Shown one piece after another: positions 32,327 to 56,343 of a DNA stretch of 64,000 nucleotides. Below the pieces are notes generated by a model. That model was given only the letters and a program-made list of their open reading frames with translations. It was not told the DNA's origin and searched no databases. Positions within the stretch are counted from its first letter, which is position 1, and each line of letters opens with the position of its first letter. Position numbers and translations under genes: made by a program. Source of the stretch: Escherichia phage AV118. Where the stretch lies: sequence record OR352948.1, one strand, 5' to 3'.

Positions 32327-33226
32327 TTATTCCTCGATTACGACATCTTCATATTTAGGTATATTATATGGTGAAGAAATTAAAGCATTAAAGTAGATGA
32401 ACTCACCAAGACCTGGATGAAATACTTCTTCAGGATTTTCGAAATATTGAATCTTCGGACGTCCTTTAAGAATTTGATAGTACTCGGTTTTAGTTGGTTT
32501 AAAAATTCGAATCAACGCTTCTTCAGGATACTTATTTCTGTCAAAGCTATTATTTGGATCTGTTATATAAAGCGGTTGACCTAATTGAATTGCGCATTCA
32601 ACAACTTGTTCAAAACGATAGCATGGGTCACTAATTCGAAATGGATGAAAAATACCATCTAGATTAATAGGAGCCAAATCACCTACAAGACGCTGCATGA
32701 TGGAAGGACGTATAACTTTCTGCGTTACGATAATCTTATTACCATCTGCACCTGCGTTAACCAGCACTTCTTTTTGACGTTCATTCAACACAGTTGTTTG
32801 GATTGAACGATTAACCGACAATATGTCGGTTTTTAAGAATTCGTCAATATAAAAACGTGGTTTATTAGGGTCTGCGGTGATATTGAAATTGAATTCTACA
32901 TCAAAAGCGCCGTCATATCCAGTGATATCTGTGATTAGAAAATCACAATCATAATAAGCAATTAATGAATCAACCACAAATTCATTTTCAGACCAGAAAT
33001 ATTTACGAGTGTTATACGCGTTATCTTTATACCATAATGGAACAAACTTAAATTCTGGAAAAAGACGTTCGCATTCTTTAATATCAGATGCATTACGTGG
33101 ATATGTAATCACATCACCCGGATTAGCACGGTGCAAATGAAGTTGGAAGTTGCCATCCTTAAGGATAGCATACTGTCCAGTTTCATAAGACCGCATACTC
33201 AAGATAGGTACGCGGAAAATAGCCAT
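32327..33226 (-). CDS. Unknown protein (299 aa) in the beta-glucosyltransferase slot; candidate hmC-modifying transferase
   Basis: Translationally coupled to gene 42 (TAATG); no motif recognised by eye. Confidence 0.4.
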   Translation of the reverse strand: MAIFRVPILSMRSYETGQYAILKDGNFQLHLHRANPGDVITYPRNASDIKECERLFPEFKFVPLWYKDNAYNTRKYFWSENEFVVDSLIAYYDCDFLITDITGYDGAFDVEFNFNITADPNKPRFYIDEFLKTDILSVNRSIQTTVLNERQKEVLVNAGADGNKIIVTQKVIRPSIMQRLVGDLAPINLDGIFHPFRISDPCYRFEQVVECAIQLGQPLYITDPNNSFDRNKYPEEALIRIFKPTKTEYYQILKGRPKIQYFENPEEVFHPGLGEFIYFNALISSPYNIPKYEDVVIEE

Positions 33227-33942
33227 TAGTCAAGGAATCCTTTAACATAATCAAAATCACGTTCAAACACATGGGCACTTACCATGGTATGAGTATAATC
33301 ACCAACTTCTACACCACATTCGTTAGCGATATAATGAAGTAATTTTCCTTGGAGATAAAAATCCAACTGCATAACAACAGCACAGTTCTGAGAACGCATA
33401 TGACAGTGGGTATAAAGCTTACCATCACGAATATAATAAGTCACTGAGTCAGTACATGGATATTCAAGCGTTTCGTCTGAATCAAGCAAAGCCTGATCAG
33501 AACTTTCTAGAATTTGGAACACAACTCTTCGGGAGTTAGGCTTCTCTTTAAGTTCTTTTAGAAGAGCTGGTAATTGAGCCGCAATGCGAGGACCATAGAA
33601 AGTGTTGAAGTTCGCCGGCAAAACATCTGATTTTGGTTTAGAAATAAATTTAGCGACATTAGGATATGCCTTAAACGCTTCTTCTGCATTGGTACCACCA
33701 GAAATCATAAACTTCCAGAAGTCTTCGGCATATTCATAAGAGATGCGGTTAATACGTGGGTCGGTCATTTTGAATGTCGATGGAGTGTCAACAACTACTG
33801 TCATAGACCCAATTTCATTACAACGTCCAATACGAGAATCAGTTACGAATTCCGGGTTTTCTAAAATTTCACGATTGACTGCTTTAAATGCGGCTTGAAA
33901 ATCTGCGGCTTTGATATATTTCATTGTGTTATGTTTTCCCAT
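33226..33942 (-). CDS. 42: dCMP hydroxymethylase gp42 (thymidylate synthase fold, 238 aa)
   Basis: Catalytic Cys in YPCTD; MRSQN...D with Asp at the position that is Asn in thymidylate synthase (cytosine-specific). Confidence 0.8.
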   Translation of the reverse strand: MGKHNTMKYIKAADFQAAFKAVNREILENPEFVTDSRIGRCNEIGSMTVVVDTPSTFKMTDPRINRISYEYAEDFWKFMISGGTNAEEAFKAYPNVAKFISKPKSDVLPANFNTFYGPRIAAQLPALLKELKEKPNSRRVVFQILESSDQALLDSDETLEYPCTDSVTYYIRDGKLYTHCHMRSQNCAVVMQLDFYLQGKLLHYIANECGVEVGDYTHTMVSAHVFERDFDYVKGFLD

Positions 33943-34221: not shown

Positions 34222-35382
34222 TCATTCCGGGTACCTCAAAGCGTCATCAGAGTTAGTTATATCAATAATAGATATAGAGTTTTCTGCTAACCCGTTTTTA
34301 GATAATTGACGTTTATAATATCTTTCACAATATGTACACGTCGTCCCGCAGATTTCATTAGCACAATCGAAATCTGGATGTCTGAACCACCTTTTTTCTA
34401 AAAAGCCATCTAACAAAGAGGTTTCAATATTTACTGTATGTGAAAACTCAGTTTCGTTTTCAAGAGTGAAAATGGTCTCTAAAGGCTTCCACAGTTCTAA
34501 CAAATTACCTTCAAACTTTTCAGAAGCGTATGCTTCAAGAACTTTCAAAATGTAGTCTGTGCTACCTGTACGTCCTGAAACTTTGAATTGAGTGATACCA
34601 ATATCATTATAAAGTTTCAAATCTTGAGGACGAACAAAACGAGTTCTCAACCAGTTAAATGGGTCTGTATCACGAGCTTTAATACAGTGCTGCATAGGAT
34701 ATCCGTTTAAGGATTTAGCATCATCAGCTGTAACATCAGTACTATGGAAAATATAGCAAGAGTCACGATAGCTACAATGTGTTGTATACCCTTTACCAGC
34801 ATTAGAACAGAACTCATTTACAAGAACTTCAAATATTATATTGTTCTTATTGCAAAACTCTGCTGCACGCTTCAGGAAAGAAACTGAACGGTTCTTATGA
34901 ATTCCACAGCAGACCTTTTTGATATTATATTGGTCATGCAAGTATTTGATTTGAGTTACAGCATCGACATGTAGAATTGTTGAAACTTCAATCTCAATGT
35001 CTTTATTGACTTCACGAACAATTTCCATAACAACAGGGTTAGCGATAGTAATACGCCATACGCCTATTGACCAAAGATACTGAACATAATCCTGAATAGC
35101 TTTCTTCTTCCACTCAACTAGTTCTCTTTTTGAACCAGGATTTATCGTGTTGAGTGTATAGTTAAAGCAAATACCTAATTCGTTACAACGTTTAACGTAA
35201 TCTTCTAACATCTTTTTGTCAACGTCAGGAAGCCTAAAATCAGGTCTGGCTGCTACAAAAGCCATTTCTCTTGTAGAGCCGTATACTTCGTTTATCAAGC
35301 TATTAGGATAAGTTTTATTGAGCTCTACGATTTTATCAAGAAGAGCTAAATCAAAATTCGTTCCAATTTTAAAAGTATTCAT
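34222..35382 (-). CDS. Cys-rich enzyme of unknown function (386 aa from ATG at 35382; ORF track GTG start 35397), possible Fe-S / U32-peptidase-like TIM-barrel protein
   Basis: C-terminal CxxxCxxC (CGTTCTYC) plus further Cys pairs; N-terminal VYGS...ARPDF...ELGI.F.YTLNT pattern reminiscent of U32 family. Confidence 0.45.
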   Translation of the reverse strand: MNTFKIGTNFDLALLDKIVELNKTYPNSLINEVYGSTREMAFVAARPDFRLPDVDKKMLEDYVKRCNELGICFNYTLNTINPGSKRELVEWKKKAIQDYVQYLWSIGVWRITIANPVVMEIVREVNKDIEIEVSTILHVDAVTQIKYLHDQYNIKKVCCGIHKNRSVSFLKRAAEFCNKNNIIFEVLVNEFCSNAGKGYTTHCSYRDSCYIFHSTDVTADDAKSLNGYPMQHCIKARDTDPFNWLRTRFVRPQDLKLYNDIGITQFKVSGRTGSTDYILKVLEAYASEKFEGNLLELWKPLETIFTLENETEFSHTVNIETSLLDGFLEKRWFRHPDFDCANEICGTTCTYCERYYKRQLSKNGLAENSISIIDITNSDDALRYPE

Positions 35383-35438
35383 TTTTTTGCATCTCACGTT
35401 AATTGATGCGATGGTTTTTGCAGGTCTTACTTAAATTA

Positions 35439-35840
35439 TTATAGATTCGGTTTATATGATTTAAATGTTTCGAATTCGCCTTTATTCATAAGAGCTTTGA
35501 ATTCGTCAGGACGCATAGCTTTGTCGTCGATAATCCAATCATATACTGGTTTATGTGTTAGCAAATTATGGTACTTCAAACCAATGTTTTCCAAGTTCTG
35601 AATCAGACTTGGGAGAATGTCAATTGCTATACGTCCAGGACCTACTGACTTCATACCGCGAGCAGTGTAAAGCGTTATGGTATGCCCTGCATCATACAGG
35701 GCATTAATGGCAGACACCATTTCGACGTCTGGTTTGAAGTTCACGTAATCACGATTGTTATTCCACTCTGTTATACAATCATCGACATCAAAACAAAGAT
35801 TAAGCATGTTTTCTACACGGTGCATTAGATTCGTTCCCAT
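35439..35840 (-). CDS. HAD-superfamily phosphatase (133 aa), KdsC-like candidate sugar-phosphate phosphatase
   Basis: HAD motif I FDVDD, motif II TARG, Lys, and DD motif (WIIDD). Confidence 0.55.
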   Translation of the reverse strand: MGTNLMHRVENMLNLCFDVDDCITEWNNNRDYVNFKPDVEMVSAINALYDAGHTITLYTARGMKSVGPGRIAIDILPSLIQNLENIGLKYHNLLTHKPVYDWIIDDKAMRPDEFKALMNKGEFETFKSYKPNL

Positions 35841-37510
35841 TGATGAGTGATATCGCCACCGATTGGACGATAGGAAACACCAGTTTCTTTATCAGTTAGT
35901 ACCCATTTACCAGGATTTTTTGTAATCAGAGTAGCCGTTACAGGTTCTGCTACGTCATAACTAATAGAGCCGTCTTGAAGTACACGGCCCATATTACGTA
36001 ATTGCTTAGTCAGAAGTTCCATACCTTTATAATATGCGGCTACCGCTTTAAGTGGATTATTCTTGAAATAACCACCTAATGCAATCCAGATAATTGCCAC
36101 TGCCAAATGATGATACTCGTTAAACGAACTCATCTTTCCATATTTGTAAACTAATGGATTGATGTTAATAGTCACATTACAAGTTGTTTCATCAATAGTA
36201 AACTGTCCCCAGGTCGGATTAGCATTGAATTCATCATAACCTGAAACAGCATAAAGCACTTTAGCTTCATCATACAATTTTGGCCCGTAAATCTTGGTTT
36301 CGCCAAAATATCCACGAGGGTCGATAAACTTGACTTCGCCGTTATCAGTAATCATAGTATTACTGAAGTTCGGGTCACCATGAATAACAGAGTACTGTCC
36401 CTGAGAACGGTTATGATAACGAATAAGGTGTTCTAAAGCTTGTTTCAGCATTGGCTTCAGACGTCCAATCTTAGTGTAGTTCACATGTGTGATTTTACCA
36501 AATGAATCAATCAATGGTTGAATGCTTTCACAACGATCAATAACTTTCGTATAGAATTCTTTAGTGAAATCACGACGAACAGTTTCAGGACTTACAAAAT
36601 AAGTGTCTGTGCTGAATTTCAGTGCATCTAAAATTGCATCAACAATTTGTGGACGAGCAAGACTTGATTTGGATTTAATATATTCAAATGCCGGCTTACC
36701 TTTAATGCGTTCCATTTCAAAGTTATTTTCATTAACAGAAACTAACTGAGGAACTGAATCTGATTTCACTTTCAAATACCACGAAATCTCATCTTTCTGA
36801 AGAGCTCGACCCTGTTCGGTTAATGCGAATTTAGTTACAGTTTCTTCACCAATTTCAACTGCATTAAAACTACGATTAAGTTCACGAACTTCATGAGCCT
36901 TTTCAAGTTTAGGCATATCACCAAGGTCGATGATATTCATAAGCTCTGATTTATTGAATGCGCCACTGTAAAGGAATTCTACGAAATCACGTCCTTTGCA
37001 GTATTCATGAATTTCCTCATCAGTAGAACCCATATAGAATTCCCAGTCTTTGAACTGATAAATTCCTACAACATTACCACCTGTTGAACCTACGTTAGTG
37101 ATATTTTCACCGTCGAAATTATATCGACATTCGTCACCCTTAACATAGATTGCATTAACATTCCAAGACCATGAACCAAAATCGGGAATAATATCACACC
37201 AGTTAACAATTACGTTATGGCCGTCTAAATCTTTGTGTAATTTAGCAAGAGCATAAGCAGAACCATACGCTTCATCAACTGTACGAATAGTCACATTGAA
37301 CCCTTCTTGCTCACAATAAGCTCGAACAGTTTCAGCAAATTTTGAATGAACTACTACAATAATTTCATCTGCGCCAAGGTCAGAATAAATTGTATACAAA
37401 TTGCTCAGAATAGTGTCTTGTTTATAGTTAACAAGCACCTTAGGAATATGATGCGTTATTGGATACAAACGAGTTGCCAGTCCAGCACCAAGAATAACAG
37501 CTTTTTTCAT
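35825..37510 (-). CDS. Bifunctional sugar-1-kinase (APH/choline-kinase fold) / sugar-1-phosphate nucleotidyltransferase (561 aa)
   Basis: N-terminal nucleotidyltransferase motif AVILGAGLATRL; C-terminal kinase Brenner motif HGDPNFSN and FIDPRG; GAGGA Shine-Dalgarno. Confidence 0.65.
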   Translation of the reverse strand: MKKAVILGAGLATRLYPITHHIPKVLVNYKQDTILSNLYTIYSDLGADEIIVVVHSKFAETVRAYCEQEGFNVTIRTVDEAYGSAYALAKLHKDLDGHNVIVNWCDIIPDFGSWSWNVNAIYVKGDECRYNFDGENITNVGSTGGNVVGIYQFKDWEFYMGSTDEEIHEYCKGRDFVEFLYSGAFNKSELMNIIDLGDMPKLEKAHEVRELNRSFNAVEIGEETVTKFALTEQGRALQKDEISWYLKVKSDSVPQLVSVNENNFEMERIKGKPAFEYIKSKSSLARPQIVDAILDALKFSTDTYFVSPETVRRDFTKEFYTKVIDRCESIQPLIDSFGKITHVNYTKIGRLKPMLKQALEHLIRYHNRSQGQYSVIHGDPNFSNTMITDNGEVKFIDPRGYFGETKIYGPKLYDEAKVLYAVSGYDEFNANPTWGQFTIDETTCNVTININPLVYKYGKMSSFNEYHHLAVAIIWIALGGYFKNNPLKAVAAYYKGMELLTKQLRNMGRVLQDGSISYDVAEPVTATLITKNPGKWVLTDKETGVSYRPIGGDITHQWERI

Positions 37511-37551: not shown

Positions 37552-37695
37552 CTAGTTAAAGCATTCATACTTTGCTTGTAGTCCAATCATAATCCATCCA
37601 ATTACAAGTGTTGGAATCATTACCGGAGCCGTTAAGCTCCAGTAGATAGTCATGACAAGCATCAATAGTAAAAGTCCTATTGTTATTGCTTTCAT
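37552..37695 (-). CDS. Small membrane protein (47 aa), below ORF-track threshold
   Basis: ATG at 37695 overlaps stop of SIS gene (ATGA); translation MKAITIGLLLLMLVMTIYWSLTAPVMIPTLVIGWIMIGLQAKYECFN. Confidence 0.35.
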   Translation of the reverse strand: MKAITIGLLLLMLVMTIYWSLTAPVMIPTLVIGWIMIGLQAKYECFN

Positions 37696-38327
37696 TGTTC
37701 GCCTCGTAACATGGCACCTAGTGCACCGCCTGGATGGAACTTAAGGAAATCATTAGAGGTAAATCCACGTTCAGACGAAAGGTTGATAGCAAACGTATCG
37801 ATAAGCGCTAACAACAATGTAGTGGACATTGTCGGAGCTAAAGAGTTCTCGTCAACTTCTACCGCGATACCAGTACAGAACGTATAATCAAAAAGAGCTT
37901 CGTATTCTTGTGGAATGTCAGGGTTACAATGTAACAGAATCTGTTTAACCTGAGGACGAATCATACGAAGATGTTTAGCAACACCTATCATTTCTTCAGT
38001 CTTACCAGAACGACTGATGTGAACTAATACATCATTAGGTGCAATAAATCCTGCGTCACCATGAGAATAATGCCCAGTGTTCAAGTACATACTTGGGATA
38101 CCGAGTGAAGCAAAAGTCTCGGAAGCTTTAGTTGCGATATTAGCGTTCTTACCAACACCTGTAATAATTACCCGGCTTTCATAATTACTAAGTCCAGGGC
38201 GTCGAAGAGTTTCTAGAATAGCGTTATAACGAGCAGGGTTTTGACTAATTACTTTAGCCATAGTGGCAAGAGATGAAGCTTGTTTTACGATTGCGTCAAT
38301 AGCGATAGTGATTGGTGTAGTTTTCAT
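37692..38327 (-). CDS. SIS-domain sugar-phosphate isomerase, arabinose-5-phosphate isomerase (KdsD/GutQ/KpsF)-like (211 aa)
   Basis: SIS motifs GVGKNANIATKASETFASLGIPS...HGDAGF...HISRSGKTEE closely follow the KdsD pattern. Confidence 0.7.
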   Translation of the reverse strand: MKTTPITIAIDAIVKQASSLATMAKVISQNPARYNAILETLRRPGLSNYESRVIITGVGKNANIATKASETFASLGIPSMYLNTGHYSHGDAGFIAPNDVLVHISRSGKTEEMIGVAKHLRMIRPQVKQILLHCNPDIPQEYEALFDYTFCTGIAVEVDENSLAPTMSTTLLLALIDTFAINLSSERGFTSNDFLKFHPGGALGAMLRGEQ

Positions 38328-53246: not shown

Positions 53247-53717
53247 TTAATCATGTTTCCACACCCCATCGGTATTTGACCAAAGTCGCTGATTATCTGA
53301 TCCTCGCCACAGCTTTTTAGTCGGAAGATTTTTCTCATACTTCCCATCAATAATAACATCAACATATTTAAGCATTTCTAGTTGTTTAATATCTTCAAAA
53401 TTATATCCTGTCCACAACCAAATGCTTTTATTGGGATAAAGATTTTTAATAGTTTGAACCACAGAGTGAATCACATCTCTGTTATCAGGATAGAGAGGGT
53501 CACCTCCGGTTATAGTCAATCCTTCTATATAATCATTATTCAAACATTCAATTAATTGTTCTAGTGTTTCACCAGTGAATGGAATACCATTTCTAGCATT
53601 CCATGTTGATTTATTATAACACCCTTCGCATTTATGCAAACAACCCGTAACGAAAAGAACGACCCTGCAACCAGGGCCATTCACAAAATCGCAAGGATAA
53701 AATCTATCATAATTCAT
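53247..53717 (-). CDS. nrdG: Anaerobic ribonucleotide reductase activating protein NrdG (radical SAM, 156 aa)
   Basis: N-terminal CxxxCxxC (GCLHKCEGC); ATGA coupled to nrdD. Confidence 0.85.
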   Translation of the reverse strand: MNYDRFYPCDFVNGPGCRVVLFVTGCLHKCEGCYNKSTWNARNGIPFTGETLEQLIECLNNDYIEGLTITGGDPLYPDNRDVIHSVVQTIKNLYPNKSIWLWTGYNFEDIKQLEMLKYVDVIIDGKYEKNLPTKKLWRGSDNQRLWSNTDGVWKHD

Positions 53718-55531
53718 TGGTGTTTAACCCTATGCATGATTTCTTTATTTTTACCGAGATTAAATCCGCGTTCGTTCGGATTTCCCAAATAACCGCATGT
53801 TCTTCTTATGGTGTTCATCTTTTTAGGATCAGTTTCTCCACAGATAGAACAAACAAATCCGTTTTCAGTAGGAGTCATTTCATGGGTACTTCCACATGTA
53901 AAACATTTATCTACTGGCATATTAACACCAAAATAATCTAAATGTTGTGCAGCATAATCCCACACGGCCTCAAGTCCTTTTAAGTTATTTTTCATATCAG
54001 GAAGTTCAACATAAGAAATGTGACCACCTGTCGCAATGAAATGATATGGCGCTTCACGAGAAATCTTTTCAAACGGAGTAATATTTTCTTCTACTGAAAC
54101 GTGGAAACTGTTAGTGTACCAGCCTTTATCGGTAACATCTTTTACACTTCCATATTTTTCTGTATCGAGTTTACAGAAGCGATAACAAAGGTTTTCAGCA
54201 GGAGTCGAATATAAACTAAAAGCAAATCCAGTTCTTTCGGTCCACTGCTTAAGATGAGCATTCATTTTAGTTAAAATTTCTTGCCCAATATCACGACCGA
54301 CAAGAATATTCAATTCGTGAATACCAATGTATCCTAAAGACACTGAACTTCTACCGTTTTTAAATAACTCAATTATGTCGTCATCAGGTTTAAGACGAAC
54401 CCCGAATGCACCTTCTTGGTAAAGAATAGGAGCTACAGTTGCTTTAACACCCTTTAAAGAACTAATTCTACACATCAAGGCTTCAAAACACAGATCCATT
54501 CGTTCATTGAATAATTCAACAAATTTCTGTTCATTGAACTGTGTTCCAATATAAGAATCTAATGCGATACGAGGAAGATTCAGTGTTACAACGCCGAGAT
54601 TATTACGACCGTCAAGAATTTCATTTCCAGTTGAATCTTTCCATACGCTCAAGAAACTACGGCAACCCATCGGAGAAACTGGAACTGAAGAACCGGTAAT
54701 AGCTTTATTATTCTTAACTGAAATAATGTCAGGATACATTCTTTTGCTTGCACATTCTAACGCAAGTTGTTTAATATCATAGTTTGGATCATCTTTATAA
54801 AGATTAACACCTTCTTCAAAAAACATAACAAGCTTAGGGAAAATAGGAGTTATTCCATCACGTCCAAGGCCTTTAATGCGGTTTTTAAGAATTGCCTTCT
54901 GAATCATTCGTTCAGTCCAGTCAGTTCCTGTACCAAATGTAATTGTTACAAAAGGTGTTTGTCCGTTTGAACTAAAGAGAGTATTTACTTCATATTCATA
55001 AGCTTGGAATGCATCGTATACATCTTTTTCTGTTTTAGATTGAGCATAATTCAACGCATCAGCGATTTGCCATTTTTCTGCATCCTCAATATGTTTTGCA
55101 TAGGTGCGTTTAACATAAGGAGAAAGTACTTTATCTACATTAGCAAAAGTCGTTCCGCCGTATTGATGGGAAGCAACCTGTGCAGTAATTTGTGCCATAA
55201 TTGCAGTAGCAACACCGATTGATTTAGGAGTTTCAATCTGTGCATTACCAAGCTTAAATCCATTCTCAAGCATTCCTTTTAAATCTACTAAACAGCAATT
55301 AGTAAAAGGCAATGATATACTGTAATCTAAATCGTGAAAATGAATTAATCCGACATTATGAGCATTTACAATATGGCTCGGAAGAATACTACAAGCGATA
55401 TGTTTAGAAACAATACCGGCCATTAAATCTCTTTTTGTTGGAAAGACACGAGAATCTTTGTTGGCATTTTCGGTATTTAATTCTTTATCTTTATTTGAAA
55501 TAAAATTTAAAACATCTTTCTCTAAAGACAT
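53714..55531 (-). CDS. nrdD: Anaerobic ribonucleoside-triphosphate reductase NrdD (605 aa), uninterrupted
   Basis: C-terminal zinc-ribbon Cys cluster and glycyl-radical region; size as T4 NrdD. Confidence 0.9.
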   Translation of the reverse strand: MSLEKDVLNFISNKDKELNTENANKDSRVFPTKRDLMAGIVSKHIACSILPSHIVNAHNVGLIHFHDLDYSISLPFTNCCLVDLKGMLENGFKLGNAQIETPKSIGVATAIMAQITAQVASHQYGGTTFANVDKVLSPYVKRTYAKHIEDAEKWQIADALNYAQSKTEKDVYDAFQAYEYEVNTLFSSNGQTPFVTITFGTGTDWTERMIQKAILKNRIKGLGRDGITPIFPKLVMFFEEGVNLYKDDPNYDIKQLALECASKRMYPDIISVKNNKAITGSSVPVSPMGCRSFLSVWKDSTGNEILDGRNNLGVVTLNLPRIALDSYIGTQFNEQKFVELFNERMDLCFEALMCRISSLKGVKATVAPILYQEGAFGVRLKPDDDIIELFKNGRSSVSLGYIGIHELNILVGRDIGQEILTKMNAHLKQWTERTGFAFSLYSTPAENLCYRFCKLDTEKYGSVKDVTDKGWYTNSFHVSVEENITPFEKISREAPYHFIATGGHISYVELPDMKNNLKGLEAVWDYAAQHLDYFGVNMPVDKCFTCGSTHEMTPTENGFVCSICGETDPKKMNTIRRTCGYLGNPNERGFNLGKNKEIMHRVKHQ

Positions 55532-56343
55532 AATTCTAATTTATCCTTTTGAAATTCTTCGTCTAAATATGGGTTCCAACCCATTTTAAACCTTTTGATG
55601 AAATTATCAATTCTAAATTTCGGTAAATTTAACTCCGCAAAAATAGATGATTTACTTTTAAAATCTGGACCTAAATAATCATATAAAATTTCTGCGTATT
55701 TTAACCATAATATATAAGTACCAGATTTAATTGCTCTAGGAGTTTTCCAAGGTTTTACGCCGTACATCGGATTTCCACTTCCTTTATGCCTGATAGAAGA
55801 TGAAATTCCAATTTTAATTTTAGCTTCCTTTGTGTGCGAAAATCCATGATGTGGATTTTCTTTCCAGTATTTTTTAGAAGCTTCTGATATTTTCTTTCTG
55901 GCTAAATTAGTATGATGCTTTCCATAAAATCCATGATTTTTACCTTTATTACGATTTCTTTTAATCATGGTTATTGATTGCTTTTCTCTAGTTTCTTTAG
56001 AAGGAGAAACACCGTACGTTGTAAATTGACCATTAGCATATGCTAAATTAAAATACTCTTTATTCCATATATCTTTTTCTATATTCTTTTGAAATTCAGC
56101 TTCAATGCTAGTTATTTGTTCATCTCCGACTAATTGAAAATATAATATTTCAACTTTCGGTGTTTCTTTCAACAGAGCTTTTTGAAATTCGGAAGATGAC
56201 GAAGACGAATAATAAAATTTACCATTTTTATCAATAATATTCGTTCCGTCAAAAGTGCAATTGGTTTTACTTCCAATATAATAATATGGCGGGGTTTTAG
56301 CATTAATTCTACTAATAAATGATAGTTTATATACTACATTCAT
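55522..56343 (-). CDS. GIY-YIG (Seg-like) homing endonuclease (273 aa)
   Basis: VYKLSFIS...PPYYYIGSK GIY-YIG motif; NUMOD-like repeats; ATGA coupled to gene 49. Confidence 0.6.
   Translation of the reverse strand: MNVVYKLSFISRINAKTPPYYYIGSKTNCTFDGTNIIDKNGKFYYSSSSSSEFQKALLKETPKVEILYFQLVGDEQITSIEAEFQKNIEKDIWNKEYFNLAYANGQFTTYGVSPSKETREKQSITMIKRNRNKGKNHGFYGKHHTNLARKKISEASKKYWKENPHHGFSHTKEAKIKIGISSSIRHKGSGNPMYGVKPWKTPRAIKSGTYILWLKYAEILYDYLGPDFKSKSSIFAELNLPKFRIDNFIKRFKMGWNPYLDEEFQKDKLELCL

Follow-up and report, generated by a model that had tools for sequence, protein, structure and literature searches.

The 64,000-nucleotide stretch of Escherichia phage AV118 (OR352948.1) analysed here, referred to at its full length as the window, carries a minus-strand gene at 34222..35397 whose product belongs to the peptidase U32 family. 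We consider it probable, if far from certain, that this gene encodes an O2-independent, prephenate-using Fe–S enzyme which hydroxylates C5 of a cytosine deoxynucleotide. It would thereby be the anaerobic isofunctional partner of the adjacent thymidylate synthase (TS)-like flavin/O2 hydroxylase, which would be unable to work under anoxia. The analysis establishes family, fold, conserved Cys and motifs, neighbourhoods and distribution, from which Fe–S content, prephenate use, substrate, product and O2 independence are inferred. An initial annotation made from the letters of the window had regarded the gene as unexpected in its surroundings; its ortholog in phage RB69, gp50, is already listed in a published table of the cluster, with no function tested (Lee et al., NAR 2026, PMC13326640). 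Gene and family are known, and the function proposed here was not found in the literature searched, nor was any link between U32, prephenate and phage DNA.

In RB69 DNA deoxycytidine (dC) is fully replaced by mono- and di-arabinosyl-5-hydroxy-dC, and no other modified base is present (Lee et al., NAR 2026, PMC13326640). The RB69 TS homolog gp48 makes 5-hydroxy-dCMP (5hodCMP) and carries flavin, FMN being bound loosely by the TS-like enzyme, and 18O2 labelling traced the oxygen to O2 (PMC13326640). The characterised U32 enzymes RlhA, TrhP and UbiU/UbiV are all O2-independent, prephenate-dependent hydroxylases, and two of them act at C5 of pyrimidines (PMC6747719, PMC10990095, PMC11574389). Prephenate is genetically required in each case; it was proposed as oxygen donor for RlhA, TrhP and UbiU/UbiV and demonstrated as such for UbiU/UbiV-dependent hydroxylation (PMC10990095, PMC11574389).

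Family assignment and conserved cysteines

The Cys-rich open reading frame (ORF) of about 390 aa described by the initial annotation is real. It comprises 391 aa from a GTG start or 386 aa from an ATG at 35382, five codons inside the GTG frame and giving the N-terminus MNTFKIG. Since the homologs and the annotation of the near-identical Shigella phage JK45 begin at this ATG, it is likely the true start, with a product of 386 aa. The protein is 99% identical to RB69 gp50 and contains 14 Cys (3.6%); for the other long ORFs on the minus strand of the window the figure is 1.26%. The features of the gene and its product are:

34222..35397, minus strand: U32-family protein, RB69 gp50 ortholog (maximal ORF of 391 aa, GTG start)
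34525..35103, minus strand: Peptidase_U32 (PF01136) match, TIM barrel core (Pfam, residues 99-291)
34684..34809, minus strand: core Cys set C197-x10-C208-x5-C214-x23-C238, putative [4Fe-4S] site 1 (conservation and RlhA alignment)
34570..34584, minus strand: KVSGR motif (K272, G275, R276; residues 272-276), equivalent of the U32 'KIEGR' (alignment)
34327..34365, minus strand: C345-x4-C350-x3-C354-x2-C357 (CANEICGTTCTYC; residues 345-357), putative second metal/Fe–S site (conservation)

The U32-like pattern that had been noticed at the N-terminus does reflect membership in this family (PF01136, E 7.5e-11, 42.2 bits at a gathering score of 22.4), but the match covers the middle of the chain, residues 99-291. 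Nothing besides PF01136 was matched in Pfam at E<=1, including Radical_SAM and SPASM, two further families suggested in advance for this check. Profile, fold and KxxGR motif agree with the U32 family, and the Fe–S motif may be present in a variant form. A direct sequence search of solved structures gave no match at E<=1, and fold comparison led to 5D88 (Mk0906) only. Among 1.84 billion representatives the phage protein belongs to a distinct, moderately large subfamily, for which E<=1e-30 gives 477 clusters and E<=1e-3 gives 1,689.

Conservation of the cysteines was followed at two depths, in 121 close homologs and in 127 distant representatives (50%-identity clusters; 128 sequences including the query). 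C197, C208 and C238 are invariant in the close homologs and also in the distant representatives, save for one exception at C197. C214 is likewise invariant at close range, whereas at the distant depth the position holds Cys in 76/128 and His in 51/128 sequences. The C-terminal Cys motif seen by the initial annotation was recovered at both depths, its residues C345, C350, C354 and C357 being invariant in the 121 homologs and 94-95% kept in the distant representatives; therefore, it is not a chance arrangement. C163 is invariant in the close set and about 57% conserved in the distant one, while C182 falls from 98% to 16/128 and is not conserved distantly. K272 and R276 are invariant across all 128 sequences, and KVSGR aligns with the KIEGR of RlhA, TrhP and UbiU.

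In a profile-profile alignment C208-x5-C214 corresponds to RlhA C169-x6-C176, the first two Fe–S ligands of the U32 motif CX6CX15CX3/4C (Pelosi et al., PMC6747719). C197 and C238, both invariant, stand on either side of this pair, and ligand positions vary in UbiU and UbiV, too. The Fe–S character assigned earlier to the protein is backed by a conserved Cys set of the Fe–S type, from which metal binding is predicted at two putative sites, the core C197/C208/C214/C238 and the C-terminal Cx4Cx3Cx2C. The CX3CX2C within the latter is not a radical-SAM signature, because a conserved fourth Cys precedes it, it lies in the tail, and neither profile nor fold lends support. For the same reasons (no match to PF04055 or SPASM, four Cys in the motif, location in the C-terminal tail, no fold support) a radical SAM/SPASM enzyme was rejected.

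Among the Escherichia coli paralogs RlhA was the best hhalign hit (probability 84%, E 7e-6), compared to 11% for TrhP, and the alignments span the barrel only. In NCBIfam UbiU gave a sub-threshold match of just 18 bits. Orthology to any one E. coli U32 paralog was rejected, the similarity being too remote. Two further candidates were also discarded: a TS-type 5hodCMP synthase, as the U32 protein has no PF00303 match and the neighbouring ORF 33226..33942 alone matches, and a role in defence, as PADLOC returned no match for the U32 proteins.

Gene neighbourhoods and hosts

Chorismate mutase yields prephenate. In Erwinia phage Virsaitis27 a 114-aa chorismate mutase (Pfam CM_2, E 1.7e-11, 44.6 bits at a cutoff of 27) overlaps the U32 stop codon and is followed by the TS homolog. 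A tblastn search of 50,697 phage records matched this protein to 54 records, all of T4-like phages, with hosts in Klebsiella, Serratia, Yersinia, Enterobacter, Proteus, Erwinia, Edwardsiella, Providencia, Pectobacterium, Morganella, Kosakonia, Escherichia (EcS1) and Shewanella. Where coordinates were compared, the gene falls between the U32 and TS ends of this portion of the arabinosyl-5-hydroxycytosine cluster and usually adjoins U32; in most T4-like loci inspected it stands immediately downstream, often overlapping the U32 stop. Even in Shewanella phage Thanatos-2, where the cluster is rearranged, U32 and chorismate mutase still form an overlapping pair. The AroQ catalytic residues R11, R28, K39, S84 and Q88 are conserved in the phage enzymes. 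AroQ-type chorismate mutases of 81-128 aa were located in Erwinia, Klebsiella, Shewanella and Proteus T4-like phages (L012 7158-7502; L013 4986-5231; L014 5007-5264; L015 4842-5228). Homing endonucleases also occur here, a Seg-like one inserted before U32 in a Winklervirus (L012 5352-5990) and another between U32 and chorismate mutase in Proteus phage PM2 (L015 3932-4615).

Beyond the T4-like phages, we surveyed U32 homologs of 44-58% identity in IMG/VR (41 loci, 15 of them T4-like), in a set of 5.8 billion proteins and in GTDB (7 loci). Flanks of +-8-10 kb were annotated for each locus, and collapsing U32 at 90% identity left 27 non-T4 lineages. A shikimate-pathway gene lies within about 2 kb of U32 in 9/27 lineages and is directly adjacent in eight. 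DAHP synthase follows U32 directly in two loci (L009 9145-9891, L030 9384-10130), scoring 237 bits as such compared to 63 bits for KDO8P synthase (NCBIfam). Fusions of DAHP synthase with a C-terminal chorismate mutase domain adjoin U32 in L040 (8411-9433), L041/42 (L042 7302-8357), L051 (11085-12203) and L060 (6931-7959); Pfam assigned DAHP_synth_1 and CM_2 to L040, L041, L042 and L051, while L060 was recognised with locally built profiles for both domains. Stand-alone chorismate mutases are found near U32 in L044, the L046 group, L061/62 and L057. As these are four different gene architectures, the linkage of U32 to the shikimate pathway arose or was kept repeatedly. The DAHP synthase and fusion genes on phage contigs and those of metagenome-assembled genomes (MAGs) may be auxiliary metabolic genes that supply prephenate.

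The same flanks show which modification genes accompany U32. A homolog of the first arabinosyltransferase of the cluster is present in 10/27 lineages, often overlapping U32, an AfhE-like sugar kinase/nucleotidyltransferase in 11/27, and one or both of them in 17/27, whereas a TS-like hydroxylase was found within the flanks of none of the 27. This argues that U32 travels with the users of the hydroxylated base and replaces the TS-like hydroxylase. In two lineages a TET-associated glycosyltransferase (TAGT, PF20691) overlaps the U32 stop (L011 9098-10000, L037 11101-11994). The usual occupant of the slot beside TAGT is a TET/JBP hydroxylase, and in both loci U32 stands in its place. A GT46-like glycosyltransferase lies upstream in these loci, with UDP-galactopyranose mutase nearby. 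In further lineages U32 is found beside dCMP deaminase, thymidylate kinase, NT5C or deoxynucleoside kinase.

In phage contigs of up to 466 kb with a PolIII-alpha-type polymerase (L003 9447-11086, L010 7504-9083) dCMP deaminase is directly upstream of U32; in L003 it runs into the U32 start, and in L010 the two genes are 72 bp apart. Their surroundings include thymidylate kinase, UDG-like and dUTPase/MazG-like genes, and a TS homolog was not found in these loci, which hints that dUMP rather than dCMP may be hydroxylated. In an isolate of Phocaeicola faecalis (L063 3044-7137) and a Bacillota MAG (L004 7135-17428, L058) a bacterial operon consists of GP88 (PF17338), in some cases a guanylate kinase, a SAM methyltransferase, a 265-aa protein of unknown function and then U32. 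The Bacillota operon continues with NT5C, a PnuC-like transporter, deoxynucleoside kinase, an AlaX-like protein, a viperin-like radical SAM/SPASM protein (pVip, 65 bits), a second divergent U32 and nucleoside deoxyribosyltransferase. The product of the GP88-methyltransferase-U32 operon may be a hydroxylated, O-methylated nucleotide.

The hosts follow a pattern as well. Acinetobacter, Rhizobium and Agrobacterium are strict aerobes, and Enterobacterales and Shewanella are facultative anaerobes. We found the TS homolog in 373 phage records, of which 57 come from Acinetobacter phages, 20 from Rhizobium phages and others from Agrobacterium phages. U32 occurs in 221 phage records, at full length and at least 80% identity throughout, and the host genera seen among them belong without exception to Enterobacterales or are Shewanella. 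Acinetobacter phage KARL-1 has every other gene of the cluster and lacks U32; its absence from all 57 Acinetobacter records was deduced from organism counts and this one inspected cluster. The GTDB matches come from strict gut anaerobes in 7/7 cases (Erysipelotrichales, Oscillospiraceae, Romboutsia, Gastranaerophilaceae, Phocaeicola and a Bacillota MAG). Phages of aerobes therefore have the TS-like enzyme only, many phages of facultative anaerobes have both, and contigs from anaerobes have U32 only, as predicted for a pair of O2-dependent and O2-independent enzymes; Dhakaviruses of E. coli such as VR5, which lack U32, depart from this pattern. Within the cluster U32 is also the best-conserved protein: in Shewanella, Klebsiella and Proteus phages it retains 82-86% identity, compared to 71-78% for the TS homolog, 48-68% for the glycosyltransferase and 41-53% for the AfhE-like protein.

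The window itself derives from a Mosigvirus, an RB69-like T-even phage, and the 6 kb around U32 are 98-99% identical to Escherichia phages AV109, APCEc01, JK42 and others. The modification-island setting noted initially was confirmed, with a 5hodCMP synthase, an arabinosyltransferase, a HAD phosphatase, a kinase/nucleotidyltransferase and an arabinose-5-phosphate isomerase as neighbours. All genes of the cluster are on the minus strand, and the TS homolog lies 280 bp downstream of U32:

37692..38327, minus strand: arabinose-5-phosphate isomerase, SIS domain, RB69 gp55 ortholog
35825..37510, minus strand: bifunctional nucleotidyltransferase and kinase, RB69 gp52:53 / AfhE-like (PMC13326640)
35439..35840, minus strand: HAD phosphatase, RB69 gp51 / AfhF-like (PMC13326640)
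33985..34225, minus strand: small ORF in the U32-TS spacer, RB69ORF049c / JK45 gp044 homolog, split into ORFs of 53 and 31 aa
33226..33942, minus strand: TS homolog, flavin/O2-dependent 5-hydroxy-dCMP synthase, RB69 gp48 ortholog (PF00303; PMC13326640)
32327..33226, minus strand: DNA arabinosyltransferase 1, RB69 gp46:47 ortholog, intact (PMC13326640)
31777..32325, minus strand: thymidylate-kinase-like protein, RB69 gp45 ortholog (JK45 annotation; PMC13326640 Table 1; no Pfam match at E<=0.001)
53714..55531, minus strand: NrdD anaerobic ribonucleotide reductase, intact, 605 aa, 567 bits (context)
53247..53717, minus strand: NrdG activase (context)

Since the window encodes NrdD and NrdG, the phage is built for replication without oxygen, and one O2-dependent step of DNA-precursor synthesis is already duplicated in it (the NrdAB/NrdDG pair). 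Upstream of nrdD a 273-aa ORF (55522..56343, minus strand) carries a NUMOD3 motif, typical of homing endonucleases; in JK45 a homing endonuclease interrupts nrdD according to the annotation. The arabinosyltransferase (299 aa) and the nucleotidyltransferase/kinase (561 aa) each form one intact ORF here and are split in the RB69 reference; the gp46:47 and gp52:53 splits were ascribed to sequencing errors (PMC13326640), with which the window agrees. Compared with the 79-aa gp044 of JK45, the spacer ORF is split by one extra nucleotide in an A-run; gp044 shares 4 nt with the U32 gene at its stop and occupies the slot of chorismate mutase in other T4-like phages. No Pfam matches were obtained for the small spacer ORFs, nor was similarity to chorismate mutase detected for the intact 79-aa ORF. 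The split may be due to a sequencing error or point to a pseudogene, or the ORF may specify some unrelated small protein. In Dhakavirus VR5 a 178-aa P-loop kinase-like gene fills the U32 slot (L002 8468-9004).

Proposed reaction and alternative functions

The substrate of the phage enzyme would most simply be dCMP, and less likely cytosine already in DNA. In the proposed reaction gp50 would withdraw two electrons from the cytosine ring of dCMP through its Fe–S centres, and the C4 hydroxyl of prephenate would be the incoming oxygen, following the scheme proposed for UbiU/UbiV. The core cluster at C197/C208/C214/C238 may serve as catalytic or redox Fe–S site, and the C-terminal Cys4 as a second cluster relaying the two electrons removed from the base. 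The resulting 5-hydroxy-dCMP would enter the same route of kinase, polymerase and arabinosyltransferase, with 5-hydroxy-dC as the arabinosyl acceptor. As the biology of this phage, like that of T4, is built around modified cytosine, all dC must be replaced even under anoxia, which would amount to about 6x10^4 residues per phage genome. Phage chorismate mutase and DAHP synthase could raise prephenate to meet this stoichiometric demand.

Several points weigh against this proposal. The similarity of phage U32 to the characterised hydroxylases is remote as judged from sequence. RlhA C192 and C196 have no Cys counterpart in the phage protein, so that C197 and C238 are only presumed, if likely, stand-ins for the third and fourth canonical U32 cysteines. 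Aerobically, TS homolog and dNMP kinase suffice for 5hodC formation, with the oxygen coming from O2 (PMC13326640). E. coli and Salmonella phages of the Dhakavirus type (e.g. VR5) have the cluster without U32, which is therefore not obligatory in facultative anaerobes. The Mosigvirus of the window has no chorismate mutase, neither the gene nor a remnant being found in its U32-TS spacer by tblastn and a chorismate mutase HMM in all six frames; like other Mosigviruses, it would depend on host PheA/TyrA. In vitro reconstitution has yet to be achieved for any U32 hydroxylase, and what prephenate and the Fe–S clusters do is still unproven (PMC10990095, PMC11574389). No U32 enzyme acting on a free nucleotide or on DNA has been reported. 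The literature searched yielded no experimental function for gp50, a phage Tn-seq preprint containing nothing on this gene, although tests in He et al. 2026 and Mahler et al. 2025 are possible.

Prephenate-dependent hydroxylation could instead be directed at a host molecule (tRNA U34, rRNA C2501 or a quinone) and tune host translation or respiration. The known U32 substrates are all RNA or quinones, and the linkage to chorismate mutase suits any prephenate-dependent hydroxylation. However, U32 is embedded in and co-inherited with a DNA-modification cluster in 221 phages, and elsewhere it overlaps genes for GT46-like/TAGT DNA glycosyltransferases or adjoins dCMP deaminase, dNMP kinase, NT5C or dNK. 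Furthermore, it has none of the C-terminal extensions of RlhA and TrhP, and E. coli possesses its own RlhA, TrhP and UbiUV, so we regard a host target as unlikely.

Equally unlikely is a redox helper which provides the TS-like hydroxylase with electrons or reduced flavin. Fe–S proteins are often electron carriers, the TS-like enzyme binds FMN loosely, and a 'sugar or heterocycle reductase' is what Table 1 of PMC13326640 calls gp50. This label, given with 5D88 as best structure, is a table entry with no experiment on gp50 behind it, and the discussion of that paper mentions tRNA pyrimidine-hydroxylation pathways without linking gp50 to those families (PMC13326640). A helper would have no TS-like gene to serve near U32 in 27/27 non-T4 lineages, and its role would leave the association of U32 with chorismate mutase and DAHP synthase unexplained. 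Moreover, the TS-like enzyme works in E. coli without U32, and phages of aerobes, the heaviest users of the flavoenzyme, lack U32.

The initial annotation had left open whether the enzyme acts on the sugar or on the base, and of the two base hydroxylation is favoured. Epimerisation, dehydration or hydroxylation of the sugar or sugar nucleotide would suit the adjoining sugar-activating genes and the frequency of TIM-barrel folds among sugar enzymes. The route from ribulose-5-phosphate to UDP-arabinofuranose is fully assigned, though, to the isomerase, AfhE-like and AfhF-like enzymes and was reconstituted for phage HY126, Acinetobacter phages without U32 make the identical arabinosyl-5-hydroxy-dC, and RB69 nucleosides carry only unmodified pentoses (PMC13326640). 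Pfam revealed no relationship to sugar epimerases or dehydratases. Because U32-less phages carry the rest of the cluster, those of Acinetobacter with the same product, and the UDP-arabinose route is otherwise assigned, we consider action on the sugar improbable, and slightly more so than the two preceding alternatives. A true peptidase of the collagenase-like PrtC type, suggested by the family name and the 'peptidase' label in PHROGs (phrog_5757) and GenBank, is very improbable, as that name is historical, the characterised members are Fe–S hydroxylases, and neither ten conserved Cys nor the genomic context nor the linkage to chorismate mutase would make sense in a protease.

Hydroxylation of a cytosine deoxynucleotide by U32 leads to a wider suggestion, which we put forward more tentatively and hold to be possible rather than probable: phage DNA hypermodification may be split by oxygen, with TS/flavin-O2 enzymes in phages of aerobes, two-cluster prephenate U32 enzymes in those of strict anaerobes and both in facultative hosts, and chorismate mutase and DAHP synthase as auxiliary genes for prephenate. 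If the proposed function holds, about one molecule of prephenate would be needed per modified base, and phage chorismate mutase and DAHP synthase would move from 'amino-acid metabolism' to the supply of a co-substrate for DNA modification. The protein would be without precedent among U32 hydroxylases, both in coming from a virus and in having a DNA precursor as substrate. If that substrate is soluble, as dCMP is, no U32 enzyme before it would have lent itself to reconstitution in vitro, and a small, monomeric-looking phage enzyme combined with commercial dCMP would make the U32 mechanism directly testable. It would explain how RB69-like phages of the anoxic gut can have a modification that requires O2, their DNA disguise being kept without oxygen, and would make U32 conditionally essential under anoxia, which bears on gut phage therapy and on assay conditions. 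Glycosylated or methylated 5-hydroxypyrimidine DNA would be widespread among gut phages, given the 477 family clusters at E<=1e-30, and the subfamily together with GT46-like, AfhE-like or TAGT genes could mark hypermodified DNA in uncultured phages of anaerobes.

Comparison with known systems

The closest parallel to the proposed function is RlhA (YdcP), the 5-hydroxycytidine-2501 synthase of E. coli 23S rRNA, which belongs to the same Pfam family as phage U32, aligns with it at the first two Fe–S Cys and at K-x-x-G-R and performs the chemistry proposed here, an O2-independent, prephenate-dependent hydroxylation of cytosine at C5 (PMC5727448, PMC10990095). RlhA has 653 aa with long C-terminal domains and serves one rRNA residue, whereas the phage protein has 386-391 aa, a different arrangement of the third and fourth Cys and a C-terminal Cys4 tail of its own, and would have to turn over stoichiometrically on every cytosine of a 170-kb genome, presumably as nucleotide.

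Precedents for an O2-dependent enzyme and a U32 enzyme making the same product are TrhO/TrhP (YegQ; tRNA ho5U) and UbiI-H-F/UbiU-UbiV (ubiquinone) (PMC6599085, PMC6747719, PMC10990095). The sequence similarity of phage U32 to TrhP and UbiU/UbiV is marginal, and their substrates are tRNA and a quinone, compared to a presumed DNA precursor. UbiU/UbiV is a heterodimer with one cluster per subunit, while the phage protein has two conserved Cys4 sites in one chain. From the known U32 enzymes it further differs in its viral origin and in the dedicated prephenate-supply genes of its relatives. Mk0906 of Methanopyrus kandleri (PDB 5D88), which has a U32 domain, is 11-14% identical to phage U32 and lacks the C-terminal Cys4 tail. 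The 5hodCMP synthases RB69 gp48, DLP3 gp80 and that of HY126 share with U32 the proposed product and the cluster, but are unrelated in fold and cofactor. The TS-like synthase is O2-dependent, occurs in phages of aerobes without U32, and is absent beside U32 in anaerobe-associated contigs.

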